The notes beneath the pieces are model-generated. The model saw only the letters and a list, made by a program, of their open reading frames with translations. It ran no database searches and was not told the DNA's origin. A stretch of DNA of 64,000 nucleotides, taken from assembly GCA_963793305.1 (NCBI GenBank), contig CAWBZV010000005.1:448001-512000 (forward strand), given 5' to 3'. Of this stretch, positions 3,889 to 60,545 are shown in pieces. Source of the DNA: an uncultured Gemmatimonadales bacterium (GTDB taxonomy: Bacteria; Gemmatimonadota; Gemmatimonadetes; Gemmatimonadales; Gemmatimonadaceae). Numbering within the stretch: position 1 is the first letter of the stretch; every line of letters begins with the position of its first letter. Both the position numbers and the translations under genes were made by a program.

Positions 3889-3908
3889 GTCTTGAACGAT
3901 CGCAACAT
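3889..3908 (-). promoter_or_regulatory. Conserved promoter motif copy 1 (ATGTTG-CGATCGTT-CAAGAC)
   Basis: Points to gene starting at 3813; GAGATT -10-like hexamer 19 bp downstream. Confidence 0.8.
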
Positions 3909-3931
3909 GCGGTTCGAGCGGTCGAACCCGC
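3909..3931 (-). terminator. Hairpin directly after the MBL gene stop
   Basis: gcggttcgagcggtcgaacccgc imperfect inverted repeat abutting stop at 3932. Confidence 0.4.
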
Positions 3932-5035
3932 TCAGAACGACTCCGCGCGGAGCTCCTCGAAGGCCCGCGGGATAGCGAAGGTGAGAAAATAGTTCTTGAA
4001 ACTCCACTGTCGGCCAAAGTCATTGCCCGCCATCTCGGCTGCGAAGCGCGAGAGGTCTACGCGTTTTTTCACAGAGTCGACTTGATTGGCGTCGACAAAT
4101 CCTGCGCGCATGGCGGCACGGACCTGGGACAGGAGCGCGTCGATCAGCGCCTTTTCGGAGCGGACGTAGTCCCAGGATGACAGCACGGGGCCATGACCGG
4201 GAACGATCACTTTGACGCCGTCCATTTGTTCGAGGCGGGCGAGCGATTCGCTCCACGCACGAAAGTGCGACAAGATGCCGTAGGGGACCGGCGCGATCAC
4301 CAGGTCGCCGGTGATAAGCGTGCCCTGTTCCGGGATGAACGCGACGACGTCCCCTATCGTATGGCCGACGTACTTCCGCAGCTGGACATGGCGATCGCCA
4401 AGGTCGAGGTCTAGGTCGCCTTCGAACGTCAGCGTCGGTTGGACCAGGCGTGTCTCTCGCCACGTTGGCCATTCCAGCGCCGCTTGGTCCAAGCCGGCCA
4501 TGTCGTGCGCGGCTTCTTCCGGCGTGTAGGGCGAGCCGTCGGGGTCCTTCCCGGTCGCTTGTTGCTGGATCACCTTCTTGCGCTGTCCGGCGACCACCTC
4601 GGGCGTGAGCGCGAGCTGTTGCGCGAGATACCATGGGTTGCGCCACACCGAGTAGTCCCGGGTCGCGCCGCTGGCGATGATCTCGACGCCAGGGAATTGC
4701 TCGGCGTACACCTGATTGCCCGCCATGTGGTCCAAGTGCCAGTGCGTGTTGACCACGTACTTGACCGGAAGAGATGTCTTCGTCCGAATCCACTTGACGT
4801 GCTCGCGCGACAAGCGCACGCTCGGGACATCCACGACCAGGACGGCCTTCGAGCCGATGATCACCGTGGTGTTGCCATCGGGAAAGAAGTCGGTCGTGTT
4901 GTTCGGCGTGAATGCGAAGATACCCGGCGCAACTTCGGTCGGCGCCTGCGCGCACAGCTGGGGCGCGGGCAGCAGCGAGCGCACCAGGAGGGTGACCGCG
5001 ATCGAGGCGCGGCGTGGCGGGGCAAGAGAGAGCAT
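3932..5035 (-). CDS. Secreted MBL-fold metallo-hydrolase
   Basis: THWHLDH, GHT, GDL, PGHG motifs; ATG 5035 is 41.5 bp from motif copy 2 centre. Confidence 0.85.
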   Translation of the reverse strand: MLSLAPPRRASIAVTLLVRSLLPAPQLCAQAPTEVAPGIFAFTPNNTTDFFPDGNTTVIIGSKAVLVVDVPSVRLSREHVKWIRTKTSLPVKYVVNTHWHLDHMAGNQVYAEQFPGVEIIASGATRDYSVWRNPWYLAQQLALTPEVVAGQRKKVIQQQATGKDPDGSPYTPEEAAHDMAGLDQAALEWPTWRETRLVQPTLTFEGDLDLDLGDRHVQLRKYVGHTIGDVVAFIPEQGTLITGDLVIAPVPYGILSHFRAWSESLARLEQMDGVKVIVPGHGPVLSSWDYVRSEKALIDALLSQVRAAMRAGFVDANQVDSVKKRVDLSRFAAEMAGNDFGRQWSFKNYFLTFAIPRAFEELRAESF

Positions 5036-5066
5036 TGGTGATGTGTACGCTCGCGGGGGCGGTGCG

Positions 5067-5086
5067 GTCTTGAACGTCCGCAACCT
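5067..5086 (-). promoter_or_regulatory. Motif copy 2 (AGGTTG-CGGACGTT-CAAGAC)
   Basis: Centre 5076.5, 41.5 bp from ATG 5035. Confidence 0.8.
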
Positions 5087-5087
5087 G

Positions 5088-5107
5088 ACGTTGGGTTTGT
5101 TCCAGAC
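5088..5107 (+). promoter_or_regulatory. Motif copy 3 (ACGTTG-GGTTTGTT-CCAGAC)
   Basis: TAGGTT at 5126-5131; centre 5097.5 is 41.5 bp from ATG 5139. Confidence 0.8.
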
Positions 5108-5138: not shown

Positions 5139-5726
5139 ATGCATCCTGTCGATTCGCTGTCCCTCCGGTCCATTGGTCGCGCGATCGGTGTCGCCGCCGC
5201 GTTGGCGCTGGCGTCCACGCGGCCCGCAGCTGCGCAGGCACCGCCGGCGACGGATACGTCGTCGCCGCCCGCCGCACCCGCCGACGTGCGCTCGCTCGAT
5301 GCGATCATGCACGCGGTATACGATGTCGTTTCTGGTCCGGCCGGTGGGCGCAACTGGCCGCGAATGTATTCGCTGTTTATCCCGGGTGGACGATTCGTAC
5401 CGACCTACCGTGACACGACTGGCGCGATCCACGTCGAGACCATGACGCCGCAGGGGTACGTGCGGTTGTACGGCGATTATTTCTTGCATCATGGCTTTTA
5501 CGAGCGAGAGATCGGCCGCGAGGTGACGGCGTTCGGGCCGATGACGCACGTGTTCAGCACCTACGAATCGAGACACGCGAGTGACGACCCGAAACCGTTC
5601 GTTCGCGGGATCAACAGCTTTCAATTGTTCAATGATGGCACGCGCTGGTACGTGGTGAATGTCTACTGGGCTGAGGAAGGCCCTCACGACTCGATCCCTC
5701 GCCGCTTTCTGGGGGAGGATAAGTGA
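5139..5726 (+). CDS. Secreted NTF2/SnoaL-like hypothetical protein
   Basis: Signal peptide; YDVVSGPAG..RNW, HVFSTYE, RGINSFQL motifs of a common bacterial NTF2-like family. Confidence 0.7.
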   Translation: MHPVDSLSLRSIGRAIGVAAALALASTRPAAAQAPPATDTSSPPAAPADVRSLDAIMHAVYDVVSGPAGGRNWPRMYSLFIPGGRFVPTYRDTTGAIHVETMTPQGYVRLYGDYFLHHGFYEREIGREVTAFGPMTHVFSTYESRHASDDPKPFVRGINSFQLFNDGTRWYVVNVYWAEEGPHDSIPRRFLGEDK

Positions 5727-7681
5727 TCGTGCCGCTCCGTGCGTTCGCGTGCGTCGTGCTGGCCGGCGGGTGGGTGACCGCTGCGGCGCAACCGGCACGT
5801 CCGCGCTTCGATAGCACCGGTGTCGGTGATACATTGATCTTCGCGCCGCTCCTGCTTCCCGCGCCCAGCGTGTATCGCGCGGGGTCTGGTGCGCCAGGGG
5901 CGCAGTACTGGCAGAATCGCGCGGATTATGATCTGACCGCGGTCCTCGATACCGCTACGCAGAGTATCCGAGGCACCGCCCATATGCGGTATACCAATCA
6001 CTCGCCGGATACGCTGCGGTTCCTGTGGTTTCAGATGGAGCAGAACGCGTTCATGCCGGGGTCGCTCAACGGATTGGTGTACGACCAAGACACACGGTTC
6101 GGCGGGCGCTCGTTCGAAGGCGGCGATCGCATTGATCATGTCACGCAGATCCGGGGGGCCAACGCGACCGCGCTCGTCGCCCGCGTCGACGGTACGCAGA
6201 TGAAAGTCGATCTGGCGCAGCCGTTGGCGCCCGGTGGTATCGCCGTGATCGACATTGCGTGGCACTTCGCGGTGCCTGAGCACGGCGCGGACCGGATGGG
6301 CCACGACGGTACGCTCTACGAAATGGCGCAATGGTATCCGCGGGTCGCGGTCTATGACGACATTCATGGGTGGAACATTGAGCCGTATCTGGGGCAGGGT
6401 GAGTTTTACCTGGAGTACGGCGATTTCACCTACGCGGTCACGGTGCCGGCGGGCTATATCGTCGGTGGGACGGGAACGCTCCAGAATCCGGAACAGGTGC
6501 TGACCGCGGTCGAGCGCGAACGGCTCGCGCGCGCCGCGCACAGCGCGAAGACGATCGCGATCGTGACGGCCGCCGAATTGATGAGTGGCGCGGCCAGGCC
6601 GTCGCGGACCGGGATGCTGACCTGGCGTTTTGCGGCGCACAACGTCCGCGACGTGGCGTGGGCGGCCTCGCCCAACTATCAGTGGGATGCCGCGAGCTGG
6701 CACGGGATTCTCGCTCAGGCGTACTATCGGCCGAAGGCCACGGAGACGTGGTATGAAGCCGCGGATATGTCGCGCACGTCGATCGAGGAATACTCGACGC
6801 GGTGGTTCCTGTATCCCTATCCGCAGATCACCGCCCTCGAAGGTCCGGTGAGCGGTATGGAATACCCCATGGTGGCCATGGAGTCCGTCACCCCGGACCG
6901 GTACTCGCTCTACAACGTGGTGACGCACGAAATCGGGCACACGTGGTTCCCGATGATCGTGGGCTCGAACGAGCGCGTGCACTTCTGGCAAGACGAGGGG
7001 CTCAATACGTTCATTAACACATTCGCCGAAGCCGCTCGGTATCCGGAGCAGGGCGACCAGATGCAGCGTGCGGCGGGGGAGCGCGAAGACATTGTGCAGT
7101 CGGAGTCACTCGGTGTCGACGTGCCGACGGAGCTGGGCGCCGATCGCGTGCCGTCGAATCGCCTGGGCTCCGACGACTATAACAAACCCTCGGTTGCCCT
7201 TCAGCTGCTCCGGCAGGAGATCTTGGGGCCGGCGGCGTTCGACGACGCGTTTCGCGAGTACATTCGCCGTTGGGCTTACAAGCACCCGGCCCCCGCTGAC
7301 TTCTTCCGGACGATGGAGGATGTCGGGGGCCGGCGGCTCGACTGGTTCTGGCGAGAGATGTTCGTCGAGAATATTCACTTCGATCAAGCGATCGACACGG
7401 TCATTGTGAGGGCGGCGCCCGGCGTGGACTCGGTCACGGTCGCGTACGCGAATCGGGCGCGGGGTGTGCTCCCGATTCGAGCGCGGTTCACCTTCAGCGA
7501 CGGCGCGACGCAAGATTTCTTCTATCCGGCCGAGGTGTGGAGCCGGAATACCACGCGCTACGTGCGTCGCTACGTGTTCGAGGGCAAGCATGTCACGCGT
7601 ATCGAGCTCGATCCCGAGCATCGGCTGATCGACATTGATCGCAGCAACAATGTCTGGTCCGTGAATCGTCCGACCACGTGA
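5723..7681 (+). CDS. M1-family metallopeptidase, secreted
   Basis: GMEYP and HEIGH(x18)E motifs, YWQNRADY N-terminus; GTGA overlap with upstream gene. Confidence 0.9.
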   Translation: MIVPLRAFACVVLAGGWVTAAAQPARPRFDSTGVGDTLIFAPLLLPAPSVYRAGSGAPGAQYWQNRADYDLTAVLDTATQSIRGTAHMRYTNHSPDTLRFLWFQMEQNAFMPGSLNGLVYDQDTRFGGRSFEGGDRIDHVTQIRGANATALVARVDGTQMKVDLAQPLAPGGIAVIDIAWHFAVPEHGADRMGHDGTLYEMAQWYPRVAVYDDIHGWNIEPYLGQGEFYLEYGDFTYAVTVPAGYIVGGTGTLQNPEQVLTAVERERLARAAHSAKTIAIVTAAELMSGAARPSRTGMLTWRFAAHNVRDVAWAASPNYQWDAASWHGILAQAYYRPKATETWYEAADMSRTSIEEYSTRWFLYPYPQITALEGPVSGMEYPMVAMESVTPDRYSLYNVVTHEIGHTWFPMIVGSNERVHFWQDEGLNTFINTFAEAARYPEQGDQMQRAAGEREDIVQSESLGVDVPTELGADRVPSNRLGSDDYNKPSVALQLLRQEILGPAAFDDAFREYIRRWAYKHPAPADFFRTMEDVGGRRLDWFWREMFVENIHFDQAIDTVIVRAAPGVDSVTVAYANRARGVLPIRARFTFSDGATQDFFYPAEVWSRNTTRYVRRYVFEGKHVTRIELDPEHRLIDIDRSNNVWSVNRPTT

Positions 7682-8011: not shown

Positions 8012-8520
8012 CGCACGCGCTGTTCGTCCACACCGACGTCCTCGCGCCGGAGGACGGTTGGACGCCGGTTGAGCCGCTTCGCGCGCTGGGTCCGATTCGC
8101 TCATTCGTGTCGGGAGATCCGGCGAGCGAGCGTATACGGATCGCGTATTTCCGACGAGAGGCCGATGGGATGCTCGTGGCGAAGGTCTGGTTCGGGCCTG
8201 ACGCCGAGGGGCCGCCTGGACACGCGCACGGTGGCGCGATCGCTTCGGTGCTGGATGACGCGATGGGTGCGGCGGCGTGGGCGGCGGGCCGCCGCGTGGT
8301 GACGTTGACGCTCCAGGTGCGTTTCCGGGCGATGGTGCCGTTACAGGTGGTGGTGATAGTGGAGGCGCTCGTGCGCGCGACGCACGTCGGTCGACTGCAT
8401 CTGACCGCGCAGTTACGCGACAGCGGTGGGGTGCCATTCGCCGAGGCATCGGGGGGCTTCGTGCGGATCGCGCTGGAGCAGATCGGGCTGTCGCGCGCGC
8501 AACTGGTCGATCGCACGTGA
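8008..8520 (+). CDS. PaaI-family (hotdog) thioesterase
   Basis: EGPPGHAHGGAIASVLDDAMG motif. Confidence 0.85.
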   Translation: MTHALFVHTDVLAPEDGWTPVEPLRALGPIRSFVSGDPASERIRIAYFRREADGMLVAKVWFGPDAEGPPGHAHGGAIASVLDDAMGAAAWAAGRRVVTLTLQVRFRAMVPLQVVVIVEALVRATHVGRLHLTAQLRDSGGVPFAEASGGFVRIALEQIGLSRAQLVDRT

Positions 8521-11873: not shown

Positions 11874-12461
11874 TCAGGTGGTCGTGAATCGTTCGGGGTG
11901 CCAGTCGTACTCCATGTAGCGCGCGGTGTCGCGGGCGATCTCGGGCCCGAGGAGTCGGTGGACGACATGCAACGCGCCATCGATGCCGGCCGATACTCCG
12001 GCCGCGGTGATGCAGCGGCCGTTGTCGACGAAGCGCCGATCCGCGTGCACGCGTGTGCGGGGCGCGGCGACGCGCAGTCGGTCGACGGCGCCATACCACG
12101 TCGTCGCCTCGAGACCGTCAAGGAGTCCAGCGCCGGCGAGCAGGAACGCGCCGGTGCATACTGAGAGCACGACCTCGGCGGTGCCGGTGACGTTGCTCAG
12201 CCAGGACGTGAATCGGGCGCTCTCGAGGAGTGGCTCGGCGCCGCCACCGGGGAGCACGACAATGTCCGGTCGCGGACAGGTCTCGATGGTGTACTCGGGG
12301 AGGATGCGCATGAACCCTTGGCTCACGATGGGGCCCGGGCGATCGGCTACGGTGTAGACCTGGAATGCCCGACCGTTATCGGCGGCGGCGAATACTTCCC
12401 CTGGCCCCGCGAAGTCGAGCAGCTCGGCCTCATCCCAGACGCAAATCGCGACGCGGCGCAT
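11874..12461 (-). CDS. DJ-1/PfpI-family protein
   Basis: ELLDFAGPGEVF, SVCTGAFLLA, TAAGVSAGID motifs; GGAGGA RBS. Confidence 0.9.
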   Translation of the reverse strand: MRRVAICVWDEAELLDFAGPGEVFAAADNGRAFQVYTVADRPGPIVSQGFMRILPEYTIETCPRPDIVVLPGGGAEPLLESARFTSWLSNVTGTAEVVLSVCTGAFLLAGAGLLDGLEATTWYGAVDRLRVAAPRTRVHADRRFVDNGRCITAAGVSAGIDGALHVVHRLLGPEIARDTARYMEYDWHPERFTTT

Positions 12462-12537: not shown

Positions 12538-12557
12538 GTCTTGGACGAGTCGAACAT
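12538..12557 (-). promoter_or_regulatory. Motif copy 4, variant (ATGTTC-GACTCGTC-CAAGAC)
   Basis: TACCGT -10 at 12519-12514, 18 bp downstream; points to DJ-1 gene. Confidence 0.65.
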
Positions 12558-14495: not shown

Positions 14496-14575
14496 AAGAA
14501 TCCTCATTGGTGCGGGAGTGCGTGTGGTGACGCTGATAAGCCCGGCTGGAGAAGGTCGGCGGTGTCGGGCGTGAG

Positions 14576-14595
14576 GTCTTGTATGAACACAACGT
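14576..14595 (-). promoter_or_regulatory. Motif copy 5 (ACGTTG-TGTTCATA-CAAGAC)
   Basis: GACCTT -10-like hexamer 18 bp downstream; points to DinB gene. Confidence 0.8.
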
Positions 14596-14627: not shown

Positions 14628-14647
14628 ACGTTGCGTCCATGCTAGAC
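14628..14647 (+). promoter_or_regulatory. Motif copy 6 (ACGTTG-CGTCCATG-CTAGAC)
   Basis: CATGAT at 14666-14671, 18 bp downstream. Confidence 0.75.
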
Positions 14648-16887: not shown

Positions 16888-16907
16888 ATGTTGGAATCGT
16901 ACAAGAC
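16888..16907 (+). promoter_or_regulatory. Motif copy 7 (ATGTTG-GAATCGTA-CAAGAC)
   Basis: CAGGAT at 16926-16931; centre is 41.5 bp from ATG 16939. Confidence 0.85.
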
Positions 16908-18856: not shown

Positions 18857-18876
18857 ATGTTGGAATCGTGCAAGAC
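18857..18876 (+). promoter_or_regulatory. Motif copy 8 (ATGTTG-GAATCGTG-CAAGAC)
   Basis: Near-identical to copy 7; distal site upstream of susC-like gene. Confidence 0.8.
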
Positions 18877-18978: not shown

Positions 18979-18998
18979 ATGTTGGGTTTGTTCCAGAC
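18979..18998 (+). promoter_or_regulatory. Motif copy 9 (ATGTTG-GGTTTGTT-CCAGAC)
   Basis: CACATT at 19017-19022, 18 bp downstream; proximal site upstream of susC-like gene. Confidence 0.8.
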
Positions 18999-23871: not shown

Positions 23872-23891
23872 ACGTTGGCTTTGTACAAGAC
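23872..23891 (+). promoter_or_regulatory. Motif copy 10 (ACGTTG-GCTTTGTA-CAAGAC)
   Basis: Centre is 41.5 bp from ATG 23923. Confidence 0.8.
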
Positions 23892-26570: not shown

Positions 26571-26590
26571 GTCTTGCACGAACACAACGT
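26571..26590 (-). promoter_or_regulatory. Motif copy 11 (ACGTTG-TGTTCGTG-CAAGAC)
   Basis: Points to LVIVD gene; -10 weak. Confidence 0.75.
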
Positions 26591-28837: not shown

Positions 28838-28857
28838 ATGTTGCGATCATTCAAGAC
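28838..28857 (+). promoter_or_regulatory. Motif copy 12 (ATGTTG-CGATCATT-CAAGAC)
   Basis: CAAGTT at 28876-28881, 18 bp downstream; upstream of second susC-like gene. Confidence 0.85.
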
Positions 28858-33375: not shown

Positions 33376-33446
33376 CCAAGCCTTGCTTCATGGGCGAACT
33401 GACCCAGAAGTCGGATCGAAGCTCGCCACGGTCGCTCGCGTCGCAG

Positions 33447-33995
33447 TCACGGCGCCGCTGAGCGGCCGGGCGAGCGCGCCCGGTCGACCGTTGACGGGCG
33501 CGGTACACGCGCGCGCGCCGCGGGGAAATGGTGGTCTACCGTCTGGCGGACGGTGGCGCAACGGAGCTCGGTCCGAGTGCTCTCGGCGAGGTAGCTCACG
33601 AGTCCTTCGCAGATCGAGGGCCAGCTCCCGCGCATCATCCGACGGGTCGCCGGACACGACGCCAGTCCATCGTGCGTGAGCGTCAGCACCGTTCCCATTC
33701 CGCTGGGCGTCACGACCCACGCGATCGTTGACGCTTGTTCCTCGCGGAGGCGTCGATTGAACTGGAGGATGGCGGTCATGTGGAAGCGGCGGGGTGCCTC
33801 ATACTCCAGGACGCTCCCGGCCATGACGACGTGGCCATCGGGGAGTTGATAGGTGACGCGCGCACCCTCTCTCCAGGTCGACCGCACGGCCAAGTCGTAG
33901 AAATAGCGGCGCGTTTGGTTGGGGTCCGTAATGGACTCCCAGACCGTGGCGGGTCGGGCGGCGAGCGCGAGCGTGTAGATCAGTTGGTCGATCAT
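33447..33995 (-). CDS. SRPBCC/AHSA1-domain protein
   Basis: VWESITDP..RYF..STWREG..GSVLEYEAPRR..VLTLTHDG..W; ATGA-coupled to upstream regulator. Confidence 0.8.
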   Translation of the reverse strand: MIDQLIYTLALAARPATVWESITDPNQTRRYFYDLAVRSTWREGARVTYQLPDGHVVMAGSVLEYEAPRRFHMTAILQFNRRLREEQASTIAWVVTPSGMGTVLTLTHDGLASCPATRRMMRGSWPSICEGLVSYLAESTRTELRCATVRQTVDHHFPAARARVPRPSTVDRARSPGRSAAP

Positions 33996-34759
33996 CCGAG
34001 CGGCTCAGATGGTGAGGGATCCGTGGGTCGGGGAACCATATATCCCGTATCGCGAACGGTCAGTATGTAGCGGGGCGCTTCGATATCCGGCTCGATCTTC
34101 TTCCGGAGGACCGACATGTGCTTGTCGATCGCCCGAGCGCCGATGGCCTTTGTTGCGGTCGCGGAAATGGCGCGGTACAACTCGGCGCGCGTGACGACTT
34201 GCCCCCGAGACCGCATCAACGCGAGGAGGAGCGTGAACTCGACGTGGGACAGTCGCAGGCGAGTCGAGCCGCGCCTCACGACACGCGCGGCGGGGTCGAT
34301 GACGAGGTCGCCCAACAGCTCCTGGCGATCAGCCCCTGGGAGCACGCGCATGTGCGGTCGACGCAGCAATGCGTACGTACGGGCGGCGAGCTCGCGGGGC
34401 GAGCAGTTGAAATCGGCCACCATATCGGCGCCGGCGGCAATGCAGCGCTCTGCGGCCTGGTCATCGCGCGGCGGAATCAGGACGAGGTAGCGAATGGGGA
34501 GCCCTTCATCGCACTGCTGCTGCATGGTCGCCAGCCATTCGGCATTCTGATCCGACCACCGCAGGACGATGGCGGCGGGGGTGTCTTCGCGGGCGCGATC
34601 GAGCGCGTGCAACGCGTCCGGCTGGATCTCGACGCGAAATCCGGCTTGCTCGAGCGCGAGACATTGTTCCGTCATGCGCGGTGCGCCGCGGTCGCCGAGG
34701 ACGATGAGGGCGCCCTGGTGGCGCGGCGCCAGGTGTTGCTCGGAGGGTGGCGGCCTCAC
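33992..34759 (-). CDS. OmpR-family winged-helix regulator with degenerate receiver
   Basis: LSHVEFTLL..VVTRAEL..RAIDKHMSVLRKKIE..YILTVRDTGY; receiver lacks the phospho-Asp and Lys; GTGA overlap. Confidence 0.75.
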   Translation of the reverse strand: MRPPPSEQHLAPRHQGALIVLGDRGAPRMTEQCLALEQAGFRVEIQPDALHALDRAREDTPAAIVLRWSDQNAEWLATMQQQCDEGLPIRYLVLIPPRDDQAAERCIAAGADMVADFNCSPRELAARTYALLRRPHMRVLPGADRQELLGDLVIDPAARVVRRGSTRLRLSHVEFTLLLALMRSRGQVVTRAELYRAISATATKAIGARAIDKHMSVLRKKIEPDIEAPRYILTVRDTGYMVPRPTDPSPSEPLG

Positions 34760-35472
34760 GCCATCATCCGACCGGCGGCCTTGACGTGGGCCGGATCGGC
34801 CCGGAACCCGTAGCCCGTCTTCCGTATCGAAAAGATGTAGTCGCCGCAGTCGGCGCGCCCGAGCTTGCCGCGCAGCGAGCTCACATGGGCATCGACGGTG
34901 CGTGAAGTGGCGCCGGCGGATGCGTCGGTGGCGCGCGAATACTGCCACACCGTGCGCAGGAGCTCGTCGCGCGGGACGGCGCGTCCGCGATTTCGGATCA
35001 ACGCCTGGAGGAGCTCGCATTCCTTCAGCGTAAGCTGCACGGTCTCCGCCCCTCCGCGGATGGACCGGGTCGGCGGATGGAATGCCAACTCGCCGAACTG
35101 CACCCATGAGGGCCCGCGGCGCTCGGGCGGATTGACCCGCCGCAGCATCGCCAGGATATGCGCTTTGATCCCCCGGAAGCTGACGGGCATCGAGAGCCAA
35201 TCGTCGGCGCCGCGCACCAAGGCCCGCAGCATCACCATTTCGTCGCGCGGTGGTGTCGCGACCAGCAGGAGCGGCACACCGGACCGACGACGCAGCGATC
35301 CCACGAGCCCTGGATCGTCCGCGATGATCAGGTCGGGTTCGGTGGGCTCGAGCCGATGCAGTACGTCGAGGGTGTTCGATGCGATTGGGCTCTGATACCC
35401 CTCGGCCTCGAGGTGATTGCAGAGCCACACGGCGTGTTGGCGATCGGACTCGAGAATGAGTAGCTGAGGCAC
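34756..35472 (-). CDS. OmpR-family response regulator, atypical receiver
   Basis: PDLIIADD, GADDWLSMP (K->M), LTLKECELL, SRTVDAHVSSLRGKL, IRKTGY. Confidence 0.8.
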   Translation of the reverse strand: MPQLLILESDRQHAVWLCNHLEAEGYQSPIASNTLDVLHRLEPTEPDLIIADDPGLVGSLRRRSGVPLLLVATPPRDEMVMLRALVRGADDWLSMPVSFRGIKAHILAMLRRVNPPERRGPSWVQFGELAFHPPTRSIRGGAETVQLTLKECELLQALIRNRGRAVPRDELLRTVWQYSRATDASAGATSRTVDAHVSSLRGKLGRADCGDYIFSIRKTGYGFRADPAHVKAAGRMMA

Positions 35473-35541: not shown

Positions 35542-35561
35542 GTCTTGAACGATGTCAACAT
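35542..35561 (-). promoter_or_regulatory. Motif copy 13 (ATGTTG-ACATCGTT-CAAGAC)
   Basis: GAGAAT at 35523-35518, 18 bp downstream; points to response-regulator operon. Confidence 0.85.
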
Positions 35562-38227: not shown

Positions 38228-38247
38228 GTCTTGAACGATCGCAACGT
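38228..38247 (-). promoter_or_regulatory. Motif copy 14 (ACGTTG-CGATCGTT-CAAGAC)
   Basis: CACCTT -10 at 38209-38204; centre 42.5 bp from ATG 38195. Confidence 0.85.
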
Positions 38248-38259: not shown

Positions 38260-38279
38260 TTGTTGCATCCGTTCAAGAT
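38260..38279 (+). promoter_or_regulatory. Motif copy 15 (TTGTTG-CATCCGTT-CAAGAT)
   Basis: CACGTT at 38298-38303; centre 40.5 bp from ATG 38310. Confidence 0.8.
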
Positions 38280-39269: not shown

Positions 39270-39289
39270 ATGTTGTGTCCATTCTAGAC
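39270..39289 (+). promoter_or_regulatory. Motif copy 16 (ATGTTG-TGTCCATT-CTAGAC)
   Basis: CAGAAT at 39307-39312; centre 41.5 bp from ATG 39321. Confidence 0.8.
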
Positions 39290-44876: not shown

Positions 44877-44896
44877 GTCTTGCACGATTTCAACAT
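44877..44896 (-). promoter_or_regulatory. Motif copy 17 (ATGTTG-AAATCGTG-CAAGAC)
   Basis: TACGAT at 44857-44852; centre 40.5 bp from ATG 44846. Confidence 0.85.
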
Positions 44897-45019: not shown

Positions 45020-45739
45020 ATGAGCGCCGAGGTATTGCACGCACTCGTCGTCGGTGGGAAGCCAGCGCTGCGCCAGGTCGTCAAGGACCATCTGGCTTAC
45101 CATCCCGACATCCGCGTCGTCGGCGAATGTCACACCGCGACGTTGGCGCAGGCGGCGGTGCGGGAGCTGCGTCCCGAGTTGTTGTTGCTCGACCTGCAGC
45201 TGTCGGGGGCTGACGCGCTCGCGTCGGCCGATGGGATTGGCGCGCGGGCGCTGCCAGTCATCATCACGACCAGTTATCCGATGGCGGCGCTGCGGGGGTA
45301 TGACGGCGGACGGGTGTCGTACCGGATCCGACCCATGAACGACGAGGGGCTGCGCGCACTCTTGGGCGACGCGCGGGTGTTGATCCGCGGGCGACTCGCG
45401 ACGCCGTACGCGAGCAGCGTCACGGTGCGTGTGAGCCATGGCGTGATGGTCGTCAATGCAGCGGACATCCACTGGATCGAGGGCGACGATGGCCAGGTCC
45501 AACTGCACGCGAACGGGGGACCGCAGTCGGTGTACGAGACCTTACGCGACCTGGAGCGCCTGCTCGATCCGCGGCGGTTCGTCCGCGTCCATCGTTCGGC
45601 GATCGTGAATATGGATCGGGTGTCGGCGGTGCAGCCGCATCGCAAGGGGCGGTGCGTGCTGGTGCTGGATAACGGAGCGCGCATCATCACGAGTGTGGCG
45701 CGTTCATCGATCGCGGACGCGTTGCGCCGGGCATTCTGA
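45020..45739 (+). CDS. LytTR-family response regulator
   Basis: ELLLLDLQL receiver; IHWIEG..LHA..ETLRDLERLLDPRRFVRVHRSAIVN; TTGACG..CATCCT promoter upstream. Confidence 0.85.
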   Translation: MSAEVLHALVVGGKPALRQVVKDHLAYHPDIRVVGECHTATLAQAAVRELRPELLLLDLQLSGADALASADGIGARALPVIITTSYPMAALRGYDGGRVSYRIRPMNDEGLRALLGDARVLIRGRLATPYASSVTVRVSHGVMVVNAADIHWIEGDDGQVQLHANGGPQSVYETLRDLERLLDPRRFVRVHRSAIVNMDRVSAVQPHRKGRCVLVLDNGARIITSVARSSIADALRRAF

Positions 45740-46318: not shown

Positions 46319-46338
46319 GGATTGAACGAACGCAACAT
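46319..46338 (-). promoter_or_regulatory. Motif copy 18, lacks GAC arm (ATGTTG-CGTTCGTT-CAATCC)
   Basis: No minus-strand gene downstream; lies upstream of canonical promoter TTGACA 46374-46379 / CATGAT 46397-46402. Confidence 0.65.
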
Positions 46339-46411
46339 GCCCTTGCCCATGATGTCACACCGCCGCTCCTGCGTTGACAGTGCGGGCACGGCCGTGCATG
46401 ATGGCGCGACC

Positions 46412-47554: not shown

Positions 47555-47574
47555 GTCTTGGATGGACGCAACGC
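47555..47574 (-). promoter_or_regulatory. Motif copy 19 (GCGTTG-CGTCCATC-CAAGAC)
   Basis: Points to AGGAG + ATG 47507 (9-codon ORF) between convergent genes. Confidence 0.65.
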
Positions 47575-50282: not shown

Positions 50283-50433
50283 CGGGAGACGGTGGGGTTG
50301 GGTGATGGCGAGCGATTGGATAAAACGGCCACTGCCTGGGCGCGATCTGCGTACGACGATGCGGGGGCGAAGCGGAGCGCCATCACGGCCGTCGTGCTCC
50401 AAGGTGAGCTAGCTACCTGCGTGCAATGGAGAT

Positions 50434-50453
50434 GTCTTGTATTAATGCAACAT
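50434..50453 (-). promoter_or_regulatory. Motif copy 20 (ATGTTG-CATTAATA-CAAGAC)
   Basis: TAGCTA 18 bp downstream; points to gene ending at 49113. Confidence 0.8.
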
Positions 50454-50704: not shown

Positions 50705-51735
50705 ATGGTTCCACGCCTCGCATTGTTGACCGCTGTATGGCTTGTCGCGCCACTGCGGGCCCAGCTGTTTCCGGCGGGACCGCATCCCGTTGGTCTGCGC
50801 GTCATGTCGATCGATGTGCCTCGCCGCATGCGTGTCATCCTGTGGTATCCGATCGCGACCTCATCACCCGCTGCGCGAGCAACGCTCGCGACCTACGTCG
50901 CGGTTATTCATGATACGTCGTTCACCACCGAAGCGGCTGCATTCGCCCACACGACGCTGAGCGAACGGGCGATCGCCGCGATGCTCACAACGCCCAGTCA
51001 TGCGGTGTTGGGCGCCGCACACGCGCCGGGCCGCCATCCGTTGGTGTTGCTCGGCAACGGATTCGGCCCTCCATACTTCGTGCACTGGGCGCTCGCCGAG
51101 TATCTCGCCGGTCGCGGCTATGTCGTGGCGGCGCTGGCGGGGTCAGAGGGTGACGAGAACCGTCCTTTCAACCTCTCAGGGGTAACGGCGATCGCGGAGG
51201 ACATGAAGACAGCCCTGACGTCGCTGTCGGCGCTTTCCTTCGTCGACGCGCGCCACGTCGGCCTGGTTGGATTGAGCGTCGGCGGGTTGGCGCAGGCGTT
51301 CGTCGCAGCGACGACGAGGAACGTCGGCGCGATCGTGAGCCTCGATGGCGGGACGGTTATGCCTATGGCGCACAGATGCTCGACAGCGCGACCTGGCTCG
51401 ATCGCTCGCGCTTCACGATCCCCTATCTTCACCTGACGGGCGATGGCGTGCCGTCTATCGTCGTGGCCAAGAGCACGGTGTTCTACGATTCGCTCGCCCA
51501 GGGTCCCGCGTACCTGCTGCACGTCAAGCACCTGACGCACGCCCAGTTCACATCCTTAGGCATCCTGGTCGCGTGGATGGCGGACTCCACGGCTGCCGGC
51601 CCGATGCTCGAGGAGTACGCGCACGTCGCGCGCACGACGGCTTGGATGCTCGATACCTACGTGGCGAGCAGGTCGAGCTCGACCGACGCCTTGAACGAAC
51701 GCAACATCGTCAAGCGAAGAGCGTTCACGCATTGA
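50705..51735 (+). CDS. Secreted alpha/beta-hydrolase (dienelactone/PAF-AH-like), frameshifted near 51352
   Basis: HPVG, ILWYP, LAEYLAGRGYVV, GLSVGG, SLDG; continues in ORF 51376-51735. Confidence 0.7.
51688..51707 (-). promoter_or_regulatory. Motif copy 21, lacks GAC arm (ATGTTG-CGTTCGTT-CAAGGC)
   Basis: In the 3' end of the hydrolase ORF; upstream of TTGACG 51732-51737 / CACTCT 51755-51760. Confidence 0.65.
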
Positions 51736-55278: not shown

Positions 55279-55298
55279 GTCTTGAATGAATCCAACGT
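55279..55298 (-). promoter_or_regulatory. Motif copy 22 (ACGTTG-GATTCATT-CAAGAC)
   Basis: AACGTT at 55260-55255, 18 bp downstream; points to lipoprotein gene. Confidence 0.8.
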
Positions 55299-57781: not shown

Positions 57782-59124
57782 TCGCTCGCGTGGCTTTGGC
57801 GTTGGCACTTGTGGCGACGCCGGTGCCCGGCCGATATCGGGCCGTTCCGATCACGTCCTATCACTTGGCGAACGGTCTCAAGGTCGTGTTGGCGCCGGAC
57901 TCGACGACCTCAGTCGTTGCCGTCGGGGTGTATTATGGCATCGGACAGCGCACCGAGCCGGTCGGTCATGAGGGGTTCGCGCACTTGTTCGAGCATCTCA
58001 TGTTCGAGGGGTCGGCGCATCTGGCGCCCGGTGAGTTGATTCGGCTGATTCAGGCGAACGGTGGGACGTTCAACGGCAATACGCGGTTCGACTTCACCGA
58101 CTTCTGGGAGGTCGTGCCGCCGGCGGCCGTGCGCCTCATGTTGTGGGCGGAAGCGGATCGGATGCACACGCTCGTCGTCGACGATTCGGCGCTGCGGCGC
58201 CAGAAGGAGATCGTCAAGACCGAAGTGCGCCTGTCGTACATCGACGTGCCCGACGGGGGCTTTCCGTGGTTGGACGTGCCCCGCGTCGCGAACCGCAACT
58301 GGCAAAACGCGCATGACTTCCGGGGCCGGCCGTCCGAGCTCGACTCGGCGACGCTCGACGAGGTGCGCCGATTCCATCGGCGGTACTACGTGCCCAACAA
58401 CGCGGTCGTCGTCCTGTCCGGGGCATTTCGGTTGGCGGACGCGCGCCGGTGGATCGACGAGTATTTCGCGGGCATTCCGCGTGGGGAGGCGATCCAACTG
58501 CCGGATACGCGCGAGCCGCCGCAAACCGCGGAGCGACGCGGGGAGCGGATCGACTCGCTGGCTACGTCGCCGGTGCTGGCGGTCGCGTTTCATATGCCAC
58601 CCCGCCACACGCGGGCGTTCTTCGCCATGGTACTCATCGATCAGCTGGTCTTGCAGGCGAGCGACAGCTGGTTGAACACGGCGTTGGTGCAGCGCGGCAA
58701 GCTCGCGACGGCGGTCTTCGGGGGTGCGAATCTCCAGGGCAGCCTCTTCGACTACAACGGGCCGATGCTGTGGACGGTCGGTGCGCAGTACTCGCGTCTC
58801 GACCAAGCCGATACGATCACGGCGGTCATTCAGGCTACGCTGGACCGCCTCGGGCGCGAGTCAGTCGACACGACGGCGTTGCGCGTCGCCCGGCAGGAGG
58901 CGTTGTCGACGCTGTACGATCTCTCCGATGATCGTGGTGGGTTCGGCCGGTTGAATCTGCTGGCGTCGTTCGCGCTCTTCGACGACGATCCGACACAGAT
59001 CGACCGACTCGAGTCCGAGATCGAGGGGGTGACGGCGGCGGACATTCGCGAGACGGCGCGGCGCTACCTCTCGACGGCGCAGCGAACGGTGTATGTGCGA
59101 CGCCCGCCTCGCGTGACGCCATGA
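57778..59124 (+). CDS. M16-family (pitrilysin-like) peptidase, catalytic subunit
   Basis: LANGLKV, GFAHLFEHLMF inverted zinc motif. Confidence 0.9.
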   Translation: MIARVALALALVATPVPGRYRAVPITSYHLANGLKVVLAPDSTTSVVAVGVYYGIGQRTEPVGHEGFAHLFEHLMFEGSAHLAPGELIRLIQANGGTFNGNTRFDFTDFWEVVPPAAVRLMLWAEADRMHTLVVDDSALRRQKEIVKTEVRLSYIDVPDGGFPWLDVPRVANRNWQNAHDFRGRPSELDSATLDEVRRFHRRYYVPNNAVVVLSGAFRLADARRWIDEYFAGIPRGEAIQLPDTREPPQTAERRGERIDSLATSPVLAVAFHMPPRHTRAFFAMVLIDQLVLQASDSWLNTALVQRGKLATAVFGGANLQGSLFDYNGPMLWTVGAQYSRLDQADTITAVIQATLDRLGRESVDTTALRVARQEALSTLYDLSDDRGGFGRLNLLASFALFDDDPTQIDRLESEIEGVTAADIRETARRYLSTAQRTVYVRRPPRVTP

Positions 59125-60479
59125 AGCGTCTTCCGGTCGTTGCACTTTGCATCGCGGCGCTCGCATCTCTCGTGTCGTCATCTCTCGTAGGTGCGCAGCC
59201 GTCGGCGATGCCCGCGGTGGGTGCCATCGCTCCCGGGCGCACCGTTCTCCGACGGGACACGGTGTTGGCGGATGGCGTTCATGTGACACTCGCTCACGTC
59301 GGTGCGTCGCCAAAGGCACTGGTGCGCGTCGTGCTGGCGACCGGTGCGGAGCCCGCGAGTGTATGCGGCGCGACGGCCGCGTTGGCGCACGCCATGGAAG
59401 GCGTGGGCCTCGGGGATTCGATCGGCCACATGGGTGGGCAGCTCGTCACATTGGCGCGGGCCGAGCGAGTCGAGCTTACCGTCGAGGTGCTGAGCGCGTT
59501 CGCGCCGGTGGCGGTGGACCTCGTCGCTGGTCTCGTTCGCGCGCCGGACTCGGGCGCGGCGCGTGCGATTCCAACATCATCAGGCAGCGCTGATAGCGTG
59601 GCTATGGAGGCGCTGCGGCAGGCATTTTTTCCCGCGGGGCAGTTCGGATCCACGTGTCCCGCTGGCGGGGAGCCGAGCGAAGGGCGGGCGGCCGACGTCG
59701 AGCGGTTCTATCGCGCACGGGTCGGGCCGACCGCGACGCGCGTTCTGGTCGTGGGTCGGTTCGATGACCGTGACGTACTTCGCGAGGTCGACCGTGCCTT
59801 TGGAGACTGGCCACGGGATCGAGTGGTGAGCGATTCAGGCGGGGTGACTGCTGGCGCGGCGCCGCCGCTCATCATCGTGCATCGCGCGGGGGTGCGGCAG
59901 AGCGCCATCGTGATCGGTGCGGCGGTGCCGGGTGCGGCGGATTCGGACTTCGCGGCGCTCCGGGTGATGGACGTCCTCTTGGGTGGCAATGTTGCTTCGC
60001 GCATTACGGTGAACATCCGGGAGGCGAAGGGCTACGCTTATGGGCCGGGTAGCGTGTTGGTTGCGGCGCCATCCGGTGCGGCGTATTGGGCGGAGCTCGC
60101 CGACGTGAGCACGCCGGTCACGTGGCCGGCGATTCGGGAGATTCTGGCGGAGATCGCCCGCTTAGGGGCCTCGGAGCCGGACAGCGCGGAGCTCGAGGGG
60201 AGTCGTCGTTATCTCCTCGGTCGCACGTTGGTGCAGACGGCGACGAGGCGCGGTTGGGCGGAGCACGATCACCTTGTCGCGCTCATGTCGCGTAGGGGGG
60301 CGGCGTCGGACGGTTCGGGCGATCGGCTGCTGGCGGTGAGCCGCGGCGACATTCGCCGCGTGACGGCGGCGTATTTGGTGGCGCGAAGGCTGACGATTGT
60401 CGTGGTTGGCGACACGGTCGCGATTGGGGAGCAGTTGGGTGCCATTCGCCAAGCGGCGCGAGCGTTGCGGGGCGAGTAG
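59121..60479 (+). CDS. M16-family peptidase, non-catalytic partner subunit
   Basis: LLGGNVASRITVNIREAKGYAY motif; no HxxEH; ATGA-coupled. Confidence 0.82.
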   Translation: MKRLPVVALCIAALASLVSSSLVGAQPSAMPAVGAIAPGRTVLRRDTVLADGVHVTLAHVGASPKALVRVVLATGAEPASVCGATAALAHAMEGVGLGDSIGHMGGQLVTLARAERVELTVEVLSAFAPVAVDLVAGLVRAPDSGAARAIPTSSGSADSVAMEALRQAFFPAGQFGSTCPAGGEPSEGRAADVERFYRARVGPTATRVLVVGRFDDRDVLREVDRAFGDWPRDRVVSDSGGVTAGAAPPLIIVHRAGVRQSAIVIGAAVPGAADSDFAALRVMDVLLGGNVASRITVNIREAKGYAYGPGSVLVAAPSGAAYWAELADVSTPVTWPAIREILAEIARLGASEPDSAELEGSRRYLLGRTLVQTATRRGWAEHDHLVALMSRRGAASDGSGDRLLAVSRGDIRRVTAAYLVARRLTIVVVGDTVAIGEQLGAIRQAARALRGE

Positions 60480-60525
60480 CACGCCATCCGGTCTCCCACG
60501 CGTGCCCGCGCGACCGGGTCGAGTC

Positions 60526-60545
60526 GTGTTGCATCCATTCAAGAT
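60526..60545 (+). promoter_or_regulatory. Motif copy 23 (GTGTTG-CATCCATT-CAAGAT)
   Basis: CAAGTT at 60564-60569, 18 bp downstream. Confidence 0.8.

Follow-up and report, generated by a model that had tools for sequence, protein, structure and literature searches.

A directional 20-bp box that occurs at least 54 times within one 175-kb region of a Gemmatimonadaceae chromosome is, judging from sequence comparisons, likely to be where an AraC/XylS-family activator (P0004) docks and, from a class II position, would turn on some 40–55 promoters; we put the probability of this reading at about 0.65. An earlier note had listed 23 copies of the box in the window (the whole 64,000-nt stretch analysed, on contig C5) and had proposed either a regulon under one global activator or a lineage-specific sigma/RNA polymerase upstream element. 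All 23 copies are present where the note placed them, 15 of them matching its consensus RYGTTG-N8-CWAGAC exactly against 0.05 expected by chance (0 of 100 shuffles reached 15), while six (5067, 5088, 12538, 18979, 51688, 60526) carry one mismatch and two (38260, 46319) carry two. The observation is thus confirmed as real, and it is larger than the note stated. The window copies and their presumed targets are given below, with the distances of hexamers and start codons downstream of each box.

3889..3908, minus strand: box ATGTTGCGATCGTTCAAGAC, 33.3 bits; GAGATT at 19 nt; start codon at 69 nt; 233–236 aa gene 3109-3819, weakly 3-keto-disaccharide-hydrolase-like
5067..5086, minus strand: box, 22.6 bits; ATG at 31 nt, leaderless geometry; metallo-beta-lactamase-fold gene 3932-5035
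5088..5107, plus strand: box, 26.6 bits; TAGGTT at 18 nt; ATG at 31 nt; 195-aa ORF 5139-5726, then M1 peptidase 5723-7681
12538..12557, minus strand: box, 22.8 bits; TACCGT at 18 nt; ATG at 76 nt; DJ-1/PfpI gene 11874-12461
14576..14595, minus strand: box, 30.1 bits; GACCTT at 18 nt; ATG at 68 nt; DinB_2 gene 13896-14507
14628..14647, plus strand: box, 24.7 bits; CATGAT at 18 nt; then small ORFs without known function, 14728-15344
16888..16907, plus strand: box, 31.3 bits; CAGGAT at 18 nt; in-frame ATG at 31 nt; CarboxypepD_reg-like protein, about 16939-18129
18857..18876, plus strand: box, 30.5 bits; distal of two boxes ahead of a TonB-dependent receptor gene
18979..18998, plus strand: box, 28.3 bits; CACATT at 18 nt; ATG at 91 nt; TonB-dependent receptor 19090-22095
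23872..23891, plus strand: box, 26.4 bits; downstream only a 66-aa ORF, 290 nt away
26571..26590, minus strand: box, 29.3 bits; start codon at 126 nt; 663–684 aa protein of no family, 24390-26444
28838..28857, plus strand: box, 33.3 bits; CAAGTT at 18 nt; ATG at 133 nt; TonB receptor and SusD-like pair 28991-33375
35542..35561, minus strand: box, 29.5 bits; GAGAAT at 18 nt; GTG at 69 nt; two tandem atypical OmpR-type regulators and an AHSA1-like gene, 33447-35472
38228..38247, minus strand: box, 31.7 bits; CACCTT at 18 nt; ATG at 32 nt, leaderless geometry; M1 peptidase 36873-38195 and beta-propeller protein 35570-36895
38260..38279, plus strand: box, 25.7 bits; CACGTT at 18 nt; ATG at 30 nt; esterase 38310-39245
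39270..39289, plus strand: box, 27.8 bits; CAGAAT at 17 nt; ATG at 31 nt; M13 peptidase 39321-41375
44877..44896, minus strand: box, 29.7 bits; TACGAT at 19 nt; ATG at 30 nt; S41 peptidase 43524-44846 and a 591-aa protein without known function
46319..46338, minus strand: box, 26.5 bits; no co-directional ORF; inverted, 55 nt before beta-propeller gene 46394-47425
47555..47574, minus strand: box, 23.1 bits; neither a downstream gene nor a convincing -10 hexamer
50434..50453, minus strand: box, 29.9 bits; TAGCTA at 18 nt; TTG at 31 nt; 429-aa protein without known function 49113-50402, then TPR protein
51688..51707, minus strand: box, 29.7 bits; no co-directional ORF; inverted, 90 nt before a MacB/FtsX-type permease gene at 51798
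55279..55298, minus strand: box, 32.2 bits; AACGTT at 18 nt; co-directional gene start 440 nt off; also inverted relative to a MacB/FtsX-type permease gene whose ATG (55346) follows after 47 nt
60526..60545, plus strand: box, 25.8 bits; CAAGTT at 18 nt; TTG at 66 nt; 428-aa protein without known function 60612-61898

Boxes 5067 and 5088 lie back-to-back on opposite strands. The TonB/SusD-like pair at 28991-33375 has a 91% identical counterpart on contig C3, the similarity being confined to the stretch between ribosome-binding site and stop codon, and in a variant metagenome contig box 39270 is changed only at the variable positions 7 and 11.

A matrix built from the 23 window sites and scanned against the 5.7-Mb genome returned 58 matches of at least 20 bits, 54 of them in a single 175-kb region of contig C5 (C5:435,375-609,668, reaching from 12.6 kb left of the window to 97.7 kb right of it). 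Although this region is 85.7% coding, 53 of its 54 boxes lie outside called genes, while the four matches elsewhere in the genome all fall within genes. Within the window, 22 of the 23 sites are intergenic by crude gene calls (the exception, 51688, lies in a doubtful 119-aa ORF), in agreement with the note's 'all but one', and about 19–21 face a co-directional ORF within 300 nt, close to the 20 it had counted as pointing toward a gene start. The same holds for 39 of the 54 region boxes, with a convincing co-directional gene absent for 15, and a co-oriented box stands at only 37 of the region's 100 transcription-unit starts by a crude count. Genes behind the region's boxes encode exported peptidases, esterases, beta-lactamase- and MBL-fold hydrolases, CAAX proteases, DinB and DJ-1 proteins, TonB receptors and MacB-type permeases. 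The box is not a lineage-wide promoter element, because 440 related genomes (40 of them near relatives, the other 400 from the phylum) give only background counts; this, together with its absence from the rest of the genome, leaves the proposed lineage-specific sigma/RNA polymerase upstream element unsupported.

Across the 54 sites the consensus is AYGTTGCRTTCGTTCAAGAC, asymmetric and sharply bounded, with information content falling to background at both edges and returning at +40 and +43/+44 (A in 32/54 at +40, T in 22/54 at +43 and T in 33/54 at +44, where the background for A at +40 or T at +44 is about 17.5%). The T that the earlier note reported at spacer position 7 is present in all 54 sites of this enlarged set, while the purine at position 6, also said to be universal, is found in 53 and fails at one site. 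Symmetry is slight, despite the note's quasi-palindrome reading: only four of ten mirrored consensus pairs are complementary, and G3, T13 and G18 are invariant or nearly so, yet occupy asymmetric positions. The box does contain a 9-bp direct repeat, formed by positions 2–6 (YGTTG) and 11–15 (CGTTC).

The returning signal corresponds to a -10 hexamer of the form nAnnTT, usually 18 nt past the box end. An nAnnnT hexamer occurs at 18 nt in 24 of the 54 sites, as the earlier note's 'often' implied, at 19 nt in six, and at 17 and 20 nt in three each, so that spacing is 17–20 nt in 36 of the 40 sites having such a hexamer. For 11 genes the start codon lies 27–32 nt after the box, a leaderless geometry, and the box would therefore stand in a class II position, from about -50 to -31, with transcription starts placed from this geometry and crude gene calls. 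Leaderless promoters elsewhere in the genome have TTG at -35 to -33, TAnnTT at -12 to -7 and a 17-bp spacer; box promoters read AAGACa where the genome's ordinary promoters have this TTG, and their first -10 base is C in 20, T in 8, G in 8 and A in 4 (n=40), as opposed to mostly T elsewhere. These features support the note's view of a directional promoter element overlapping -35 in class II geometry and, most probably, of one regulon under one activator.

The candidate for this activator lies inside the 175-kb region, 75 kb to the right of the window:

C5:586758-587684: P0004, AraC/XylS-family protein

This 308-aa, two-domain protein carries an HTH_18 domain (E 6.4e-23), its nearest solved sequences being RamA, Rob, SoxS, the AraC DNA-binding domain and MarA, and full-length ToxT, CsvR and Rns are structural matches to its model (pLDDT 88.4). 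The N-terminal domain is cupin-like with an invariant HxH...H motif. Close paralogues occur only inside the region: one is a 72% copy that carries a 1-nt frameshift, the other a fragment. Upstream of the P0004 gene itself the sole box is inverted and lies 158 nt from the gene start. Two-domain proteins of this type are often dimeric on two sites; here there is one conserved 20-bp block only.

Evidence linking the box to this protein family comes from other Gemmatimonadaceae, in which 9 of 33 loci encoding P0004 homologues have an adjacent box with the same promoter geometry. Boxes of at least 14 bits within 150 bp of homologue gene ends number 8, compared with about 0.13 expected by our own arithmetic from the out-of-region match rate. 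In genome G005, a 68% homologue is followed 68 nt past its stop codon by GTGTTCGTTTCGTTCAAGAC, then after 19 nt by TAGCTT and a TonB receptor gene; the left end of the region shows synteny with this locus, and all that is left of the AraC gene there, ahead of box 444305, is a fragment. The G003 homologue is divergent from CCGTTTCGCGCGTTCAAGAC, which stands 31 nt ahead of a CAAX protease ATG; divergent boxes precede the AraC start by 30–46 nt in G002, G023 and G505; G112 has three boxes within 1.9 kb around its AraC gene; and in G519, G293 and G194 the box directly follows the AraC stop codon, the G293 and G194 loci being near-identical; related genomes in these counts are not independent. The pattern GTT-N6-RTTCAAGAC has four matches in five congeners, two of them adjoining AraC homologues. 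When 34 homologues are placed on a tree, one side of it includes 9 of the 10 box-linked proteins, in three well-supported all-box clades, the box label requiring 3 changes versus 8.8 for shuffled labels (0 of 500 shuffles as low). The AraC gene is the constant neighbour of the boxes while target genes differ between genomes; among them are beta-lactamase-fold hydrolases, CAAX proteases, DinB, DJ-1/PfpI, alpha/beta hydrolases and TonB receptors, families also represented among the putative targets in this genome. A full box beside the gene is absent in 24 of the 33 homologue loci, and in the 22 of these that were rescanned the best full-matrix score reached at most 6.8, against a 95th percentile of 9.9 for random 370-bp controls. 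In several box-less loci only the right half, CAAGAC, is present, with a -10 hexamer 18 nt beyond it, a pattern noted without a control, and recognition helices are nearly identical between box-linked and box-less homologues.

Other proteins could in principle read the box. A CRP/FNR-family dimer encoded elsewhere in the genome and bound to TTG-N8-CAA at -41.5, as the earlier note suggested, would fit the spacing of that core, the position relative to the -10 hexamer and inferred start, and a centre near -40.5, all compatible with class II CRP/FNR sites; moreover, G000 has CRP-family paralogues without close congener orthologues: the best match of C3:1002721 is only 42%, and three copies of about 70% identity stand against a single gene in relatives. 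We nevertheless regard it as highly improbable, since the box lacks the dyad symmetry of CRP/FNR sites, none of the genome's eight HTH_Crp matches lies inside the 175-kb region (the note, too, had seen no CRP/FNR gene in the window), and the boxes of other genomes adjoin AraC genes, so that the comparative evidence favours another family. The FNR recognition helix is of the E..SR type, whereas the CRP-family helices examined here are RE..R-type or unrelated. Direct reading of the box as an extended -35 by a dedicated sigma factor, for which an ECF-like protein (C5:528645-529925) is one candidate, would account for the fixed spacing to -10 and the first -10 base so different from housekeeping promoters, and an ECF-type sigma with a long C-terminal extension is encoded in the region behind box 526397. 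Against this, a sigma region 4 footprint is far smaller than 20 conserved bases reaching -50, the -10 is of the A-11/T-7 type rather than ECF-like, the region holds no sigma gene with region 3, and in nine other genomes it is AraC rather than sigma genes that accompany the box, all of which makes such a sigma factor very unlikely.

The direct repeat raises the doubtful prospect that another regulator of the region binds CGTT...CGTT as a head-to-tail pair, the candidates including:

33992..35472, minus strand: P0001 and P0002, tandem winged-helix regulators of OmpR type whose receiver domains are degenerate
45020..45739, plus strand: P0003, one of the region's six LytTR-type regulators, its receiver domain atypical

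GTT-containing half-sites are typical of both families, the OmpR-type operon is itself behind box 35542, and 6 of the genome's 25 LytTR genes fall within the region, which makes up 3.2% of genome length. A 9-bp period is, however, unusual for OmpR and LytTR proteins, and the constant neighbour of boxes at the loci read in other genomes belongs to neither family, which weakens this reading. A different question is whether the AraC-type protein acts chiefly as a repressor or dual regulator, the box being an operator over the -35 of self-firing promoters. AraC-family proteins are able to repress, the box overlaps the -35 position as an operator could, and in G003, G002, G023 and G505 an inverted box 12–46 nt before the AraC gene's own start resembles a typical negative-autoregulation site. 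We consider this unlikely, as an operator would need neither the strict -10 register nor the strict orientation, and the -35 hexamer lacks the TT of the genome's own promoters; since the first -10 base is T at only 8 of 40, the core promoters resemble activator-dependent ones in their apparent weakness.

Activation by the AraC-type protein P0004 would have parallels in known systems. Class II marboxes of the MarA-type proteins, as outlined in PMC12052159, are forward-oriented, overlap -35 and are centred between -36 and -55, and the box likewise is 20 bp long, asymmetric, in a single orientation, over -35 and centred within that interval. The P0004 DNA-binding domain is closest by sequence to RamA, Rob and SoxS among solved structures, and the regulons share a detoxification and envelope flavour. 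In contrast to MarA-type proteins (107–130 aa, single domain), P0004 has its second domain, and monomeric binding is for P0004 only a possibility; the box sequence differs from the marbox, the targets are packed in one region rather than scattered, and many box transcripts are predicted to be leaderless, unlike those of MarA/SoxS/Rob/RamA class II promoters. In fold, P0004 resembles ToxT, Rns and CsvR, which combine a cupin-like N-terminal ligand domain with a two-HTH domain (Foldseek E 2.8e-11 to 1.7e-08 over about 270–280 columns, 10–13% identity). These are master activators of horizontally acquired clusters, with one activator for many promoters in one region, as proposed here, although their regulons comprise roughly ten promoters versus at least 54 boxes here, and pili or toxins rather than the hydrolases and transporters of a soil bacterium.

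We posit that the housekeeping sigma factor continues to recognise the -10 hexamer together with what remains of the -35, GAC, while the AraC-type protein would sit on box positions 1–17 and substitute for the missing TT contact. The contacts involved may be those that MarA, SoxS and RamA make at class II promoters, with sigma region 4 and with the alpha C-terminal domain; the account in PMC8811837 has a RamA monomer making both contacts through its two HTH domains. Through the HxH...H cupin-like domain, activity could be under the control of a small ligand or metal.

The closest counterparts are the local AraC-type switches of other Gemmatimonadaceae, which have the same protein subfamily, box and 18–19 nt spacing to -10, and for which literature searches found no printed description. 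They have one to four boxes in the portions examined, an arrangement from which the regulon in this genome may have grown to at least 54. So this would be a known kind of switch, expanded into an unusually large, tightly clustered putative regulon: one chromosomal stretch of a soil bacterium holds at least 54 boxes for a switch that appears to serve one to four genes in its relatives.

All 23 copies of the 20-bp element RYGTTG-N8-CWAGAC (hereafter the box) listed for the window in the earlier note were recovered: 15 match exactly, 6 differ at one position and 2 at two. The 15 exact copies compare with 0.05 expected, and none of 100 shuffles reached that number. Exact copies number 32 across the source genome (GCA_963793305.1; 5.72 Mb, 65% G+C, 26 contigs): the window holds 15 and the others lie in adjoining 64-kb bins. 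The copies listed with a looser pattern are confined to C5:435,375-C5:609,668, C5 being contig CAWBZV010000005.1. A log-odds matrix built from the 23 window sites found 58 matches of at least 20 bits in the genome, 54 of which fall within C5:430-615 kb (3.2% of the genome), as do 57 of the 65 matches at a cut-off of 18 bits. The four matches of at least 20 bits outside this region all lie within called genes; inside it, 53 of the 54 lie outside called genes in a tract that is 85.7% coding, which bears out the intergenic placement described earlier. The G+C content and codon-based coding score of the region are about those of the rest of the chromosome. A search for other over-represented intergenic words revealed no second region-specific promoter box, only a dispersed repeat. 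That repeat (...TTGGGGTTTGCCCCCCGGAGG..AACCGACCAGTCGAGCAGCGC..., with example words CCCCCGGA and AACCGACCAGTCGAGC) occurs many times between genes on several contigs of the source genome and may be a REP- or MITE-like element.

In an alignment of the 54 region sites on the box, information content rises above background after position 0, stays high for exactly 20 positions and falls back to background at +21; the consensus is AYGTTGCRTTCGTTCAAGAC, with G3, T4, T5, T13 and A17 invariant. Signal reappears downstream as A at +40 (32/54) and T at +43 (22/54) and +44 (33/54), and an nAnnnT hexamer begins 15-21 nt past the box at 40 of the 54 sites, most often at 18 nt (n = 24; 19 nt, n = 6; 17 nt and 20 nt, n = 3 each; 36/40 within 17-20 nt). 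A mobile repeat or copy-paste promoter is ruled out as the source of the boxes by the absence of conservation both beyond the 20 bp and in the 18-nt spacer. With ORFs and start codons taken as approximate calls from our own codon-bias gene caller, 39 of the 54 boxes face a co-directional ORF of positive coding score within 300 nt, and in 11 leaderless-type genes the start codon follows the box by 27-32 nt; window box 16888 adds another case, with an in-frame ATG at 31 nt. Taking the start codon as +1, which makes the transcription start an inferred one, the box spans about -50 to -31 with its centre near -40.5.

The core promoter of the source genome provides a reference for these sites. Over 1372 upstream regions of the whole genome, TAnnnT peaks at -12 from the start codon (65 versus about 8 elsewhere), and Shine-Dalgarno-like words are only modestly enriched, from which many genes of this genome would be leaderless. 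The 464 leaderless promoters outside the region favour T (42%), T/G and G (44%) at -35 to -33 and TAnnTT at -12 to -7. At the -35 hexamer position the box promoters instead carry AAGACa, in which G, A and C are retained and the two Ts are lost. Among 40 box promoters with a -10 hexamer, the first base of that hexamer is C 20 times, T and G 8 times each and A 4 times; outside the region the excess over background at this base is almost all T. Box promoters thus look like weak core promoters needing help, and in both site position and poor core -35 they are consistent with class II activator-dependent promoters of the sigma-70 type, the predicted activator site overlapping the -35 and centred near -41 of a start that is inferred, not measured. 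The class II position proposed in the earlier note is upheld in its overlap with the -35 and its spacing to the -10.

The same note had proposed either one global activator, with CRP/FNR-type class II activation as the model, or a lineage-specific sigma factor or RNA polymerase upstream element. PF13545, the family used to find CRP/FNR-type activators, has eight matches in the source genome and none in C5:435-610 kb, and no hidden CRP-like domain was detected in the rescanned unannotated region proteins of 160-390 aa. Of the mirrored positions in the consensus, just the pairs 2/19, 4/17, 5/16 and 6/15 are complementary, and G3, T13 and G18, which vary hardly or not at all, break the symmetry. 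With neither an associated CRP/FNR gene in the region nor a dyad-symmetric site, a CRP/FNR regulon is very unlikely. An alternative or ECF sigma promoter is equally unlikely: conservation covers 20 bases as far as -50, and the nAnnTT hexamer at the -10 has A and T where housekeeping promoters have them; no sigma gene with region 3 was found in the region, and the one ECF-like gene there is a box target.

A lineage-wide promoter element is rejected on background-level counts in relatives and across the phylum together with the confinement of the copies to one region, and the lineage-specific sigma or polymerase element is likewise not supported. A core pattern with 38 matches in the source genome has 0-3 in each of 40 relatives, five congeners included, and 0-4 per genome in 400 genomes of the phylum, no more than a reversed-pattern control. 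A sequence-only profile of the 54 sites yields 55 matches in the source genome and 0-3 borderline matches in each other genome; this search scores 150 candidates per genome and missed a known box in the compared genome G005, hence it is not exhaustive. The tallies over relatives, phylum and profile search take in genomes G012 and G427, on which no claim rests. An all-species scan for RYGTTG-N3-TCGTTCAAGAC returned at least 120 stretches and, among the matches listed, each is single and in an unrelated taxon.

Several candidate regulators are encoded within the region:

Window 33992-35472, minus strand: two tandem atypical OmpR-type winged-helix proteins with degenerate receivers (acidic pocket and conserved Lys altered)
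Region: six LytTR proteins
Region: the ECF-like sigma
Region: BlaI-, GntR- and PadR-type proteins
C5:586758-587684, 75 kb right of the window: P0004, the one intact AraC-family protein

No kinase gene was found near the OmpR-type pair. Close paralogues of P0004 occur only inside the region, as a copy at 72% that carries a 1-nt insertion and as a fragment of 44 aa. Boxes were also found beside homologues of P0004 in other genomes:

G005: 68% homologue in the order PD40-PD40-AraC-box-TonB receptor; box GTGTTCGTTTCGTTCAAGAC (21.5 bits) 68 nt past the AraC stop and 19 nt before TAGCTT
G003: CCGTTTCGCGCGTTCAAGAC, in divergent orientation to the gene of a 33% homologue; the ATG of a CAAX protease follows the box at 31 nt
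G002, G023 and G505: divergent boxes (16.4, 10.6 and 13.1 bits) 30-46 nt before the AraC start, those of G002 and G505 predicted to drive beta-lactamase-family genes
G112: three boxes (28.2, 17.5 and 27.6 bits) within 1.9 kb around the AraC gene, which precede and would drive DinB, DJ-1/PfpI and alpha/beta hydrolase genes; no further box in 40 kb of the AraC contig, one box on another contig
G519, G293 and G194: box (23.5, 19.6 and 19.6 bits) directly past the AraC stop, before a beta-lactamase-family gene

The gene order of G005 recurs at the left end of the region, where only an AraC fragment remains before box 444305. In total 9 of 33 distinct homologue loci, from nine genomes, have an adjacent box (locus L186 was left out of this count), and eight boxes of at least 14 bits lie within 150 bp of AraC gene ends versus about 0.13 predicted by our own arithmetic from the out-of-region rate in the source genome (71 matches of at least 14 bits in 5.5 Mb). 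A maximum-likelihood tree of 34 homologues has a deep split of weak support. One side holds 9 of the 10 box-linked proteins, in three all-box clades with good support; of the 24 proteins on the other side, 23 are box-less. The box label changes three times on this tree versus 8.8 times for shuffled labels, and none of 500 shuffles is as low. Across genomes the target genes vary and the AraC gene is the constant neighbour, a pattern typical of regulators that lie next to their own sites; by this association only, P0004 is predicted to bind the box. Rescanning 22 of the 24 box-less homologue loci with the full matrix gave scores that do not exceed random controls. Some of these loci carry the CAAGAC half only, with a -10 hexamer 18 nt on (an uncontrolled observation), and the recognition helices of box-linked and box-less homologues hardly differ.

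P0004 is a protein of 308 aa with a C-terminal DNA-binding domain (PF12833 HTH_18, E 6.4e-23, residues 199-277; PF00165, E 7.5e-13), and this C-terminal domain of about 100 aa with two predicted helix-turn-helix (HTH) motifs is that of an AraC/XylS-family protein. Among solved structures, a phmmer search against the PDB placed closest RamA (E 2.8e-10), an AraT response-regulator domain, the AraC DNA-binding domain, Rob, SoxS and MarA. P0004 is not a mar/sox/rob regulator proper, on grounds of size and domain placement: the solved chains of MarA, SoxS and RamA measure 107-132 aa, and that group, which reads the marbox, comprises small single-domain monomers or, in Rob, an N-terminal DNA-binding domain, whereas the domain of P0004 is C-terminal. 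An AlphaFold2 model on 20 homologues (pLDDT 88.4) has beta-strands over residues 18-100 followed by helices. In Foldseek the whole model aligned with ToxT, CsvR, Rns and CuxR, cupins being matched by the N-terminal half, and the modelled architecture would be that of AraC, ToxT and Rns, two domains with a cupin-like sensor. No N-terminal Pfam family was found in P0004 at E <=0.01. Among the 20 homologues H44, H46, G57 and P79 are invariant and H84 is kept in at least 90%, which suggests a metal or ligand site. One further element lies upstream of the gene:

L005:18770-18800 (C5 about 586,670-586,700): CCACAA-N7-TTGTGG, an inverted repeat set in A+T-rich sequence about 60 nt upstream of the start codon of the AraC gene, which may be a separate operator

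We posit that the AraC-type protein would sit on the asymmetric box so that its two HTH motifs enter successive major grooves; about one helical turn separates conserved blocks 3-6 and 15-19, with TT at 9-10 between them. From the class II position it would recruit the housekeeping holoenzyme, and the activator contact would compensate for the lost TT of the -35. This proposal is modelled on what is described for MarA-type proteins, whose class II marboxes are reported to be in forward orientation, to overlap the -35 and to be centred at -36 to -55 (PMC12052159); another report describes a RamA class II complex in which the two HTH domains of the monomer contact sigma region 4 and the alpha C-terminal domain (PMC8811837). 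Both the binding of the AraC-type protein and the sign of its action, activation, are putative.

A Pfam run on 154 called proteins from the region and its flanks identified the following families:

Peptidases M1, M13, M16, M23, M28, M61, S9 and S41
Esterases and alpha/beta hydrolases
Beta-lactamase-fold and metallo-beta-lactamase-fold (MBL) proteins
Erythromycin-esterase-like and alkyl-sulfatase-like genes
DinB, DJ-1/PfpI and CAAX (Rce1-like) proteases
TonB-dependent receptors with SusD-like partners
MacB/FtsX-type permeases, one fused to a Ser/Thr kinase (window 8517-11795, plus strand: 1093 aa, N-terminal Ser/Thr protein kinase domain and duplicated MacB/FtsX-type permease)
Several regulators

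Transcription-unit starts in the region, crudely defined by an upstream gap of at least 60 nt or a change of strand, number 100; a co-oriented box lies within 300 nt of 37 of them. Fifteen of the 54 boxes lack a convincing co-directional gene, and several of these lie inverted 39-90 nt before an opposite-strand gene, at window 46319, 51688 and 55279 and at C5:441774 and 609649; box 55279, for example, precedes the ATG at window 55346 by 47 nt, and CACATT follows the box at 21 nt. Strong boxes pointing away from any gene also include C5:494319 and 499688, and a divergent gene starts within 200 nt behind 26 of the 54 boxes. Gene-less and inverted boxes may be bidirectional, class I-like or decaying sites. 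Four genes appear split into two overlapping frames, reflecting either real decay or single-base assembly errors:

Window 51798-54187: MacB-type permease
C5:520959-522205: PLP decarboxylase
C5:588234-589833: SusD-like gene
C5:573811-574731: second AraC copy

Synteny of the region is absent in the five congeners, and its genes match paralogues in the source genome and in relatives at 65-91% nucleotide identity. A metagenome scan for divergent box pairs returned five contigs, none with a regulator gene. Three of them, from soil (L128, L130 and L132), have two good boxes each (24.8-30.0 bits), with CAAX, MBL, SRPBCC, M1 and receptor-like genes on their flanks; the pairs on L129 and L131 look like chance. 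The metagenome contigs aligned to the region are short and of low depth, and a single variant contig crosses a box, 39270, with 12 differences from the source genome in 229 nt, those inside the box falling only at variable positions 7 and 11, an anecdotal observation from a single contig.

As to the origin of the region, a tRNA-Ile gene (anticodon TAT; C5:432842-432915) lies 2.5 kb left of the first box, and a search of the right side for an att-like direct repeat of it gave nothing longer than 14 nt. Right of the last box, C5:613-629 kb is a stretch of 58-61% G+C with TIR-domain, RES-domain and FtsK/SpoIIIE-like genes, and the nearest integrase-family match (C5:628931-629383) is 19 kb from that box. 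The TonB receptor/SusD pair behind box 28838 has a second copy in the source genome and an orthologue in a congener:

Window 28980-33377: region copy
C3:222121-226520, on another contig of the source genome: chromosomal copy
C27 of genome G001: orthologue

The region copy is 90.6% identical to the C3 copy and 90.9% to the G001 orthologue. Those two are 90.4% alike with homology extending into the flanks; in the region copy homology begins only about 11 nt before the ATG and ends with the stop codon, between unrelated flanks. These limits would fit a coding cassette captured behind a box promoter that was already there, or conversion of one paralogue by the other. A broader and more speculative reading, with roughly one chance in four, is that a one-gene Gemmatimonadaceae AraC switch would have gone through a regulon explosion in this lineage. 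The tract would then be a single inducible organ of about 140 genes in 175 kb with a standard 20-bp box at each transcription unit, many of the genes being additional versions of exported hydrolases, receptors and permeases that the source genome also encodes outside the tract. Within this reading, the operon copy whose homology to its chromosomal twin runs exactly from ribosome-binding site to stop suggests that the tract may be a platform which takes up coding cassettes behind box promoters already in place, comparable to an integron but based on promoters.

Class II activation by AraC-family proteins is well known, and large regulons are normally scattered. What is new is the pairing of a site with a protein (binding predicted) in a phylum that has gone unstudied and, still more, the size and density of the set, with at least 54 boxes in 175 kb, about 3% of the chromosome, versus one to four in relatives. 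The full-text literature searched, which excludes subscription journals, yielded nothing on promoters or regulons of Gemmatimonadota. For this phylum the analysis offers a promoter architecture (TTG / TAnnTT) with many predicted leaderless genes, a concrete and testable putative transcription-factor/site pair, and a ready list of about 40-55 putatively co-regulated promoters. It also documents an extreme of regulon evolution, in which an AraC-type switch with one to four genes in relatives has a counterpart here with at least 54 boxes. The set of exported peptidases, beta-lactamase and MBL-fold, erythromycin-esterase-like, DinB, DJ-1, CAAX, MacB-type and TonB proteins suggests a single inducible programme for handling foreign peptides or toxic compounds in soil, and the ligand of the predicted cupin domain of P0004, once found, would open up that programme.
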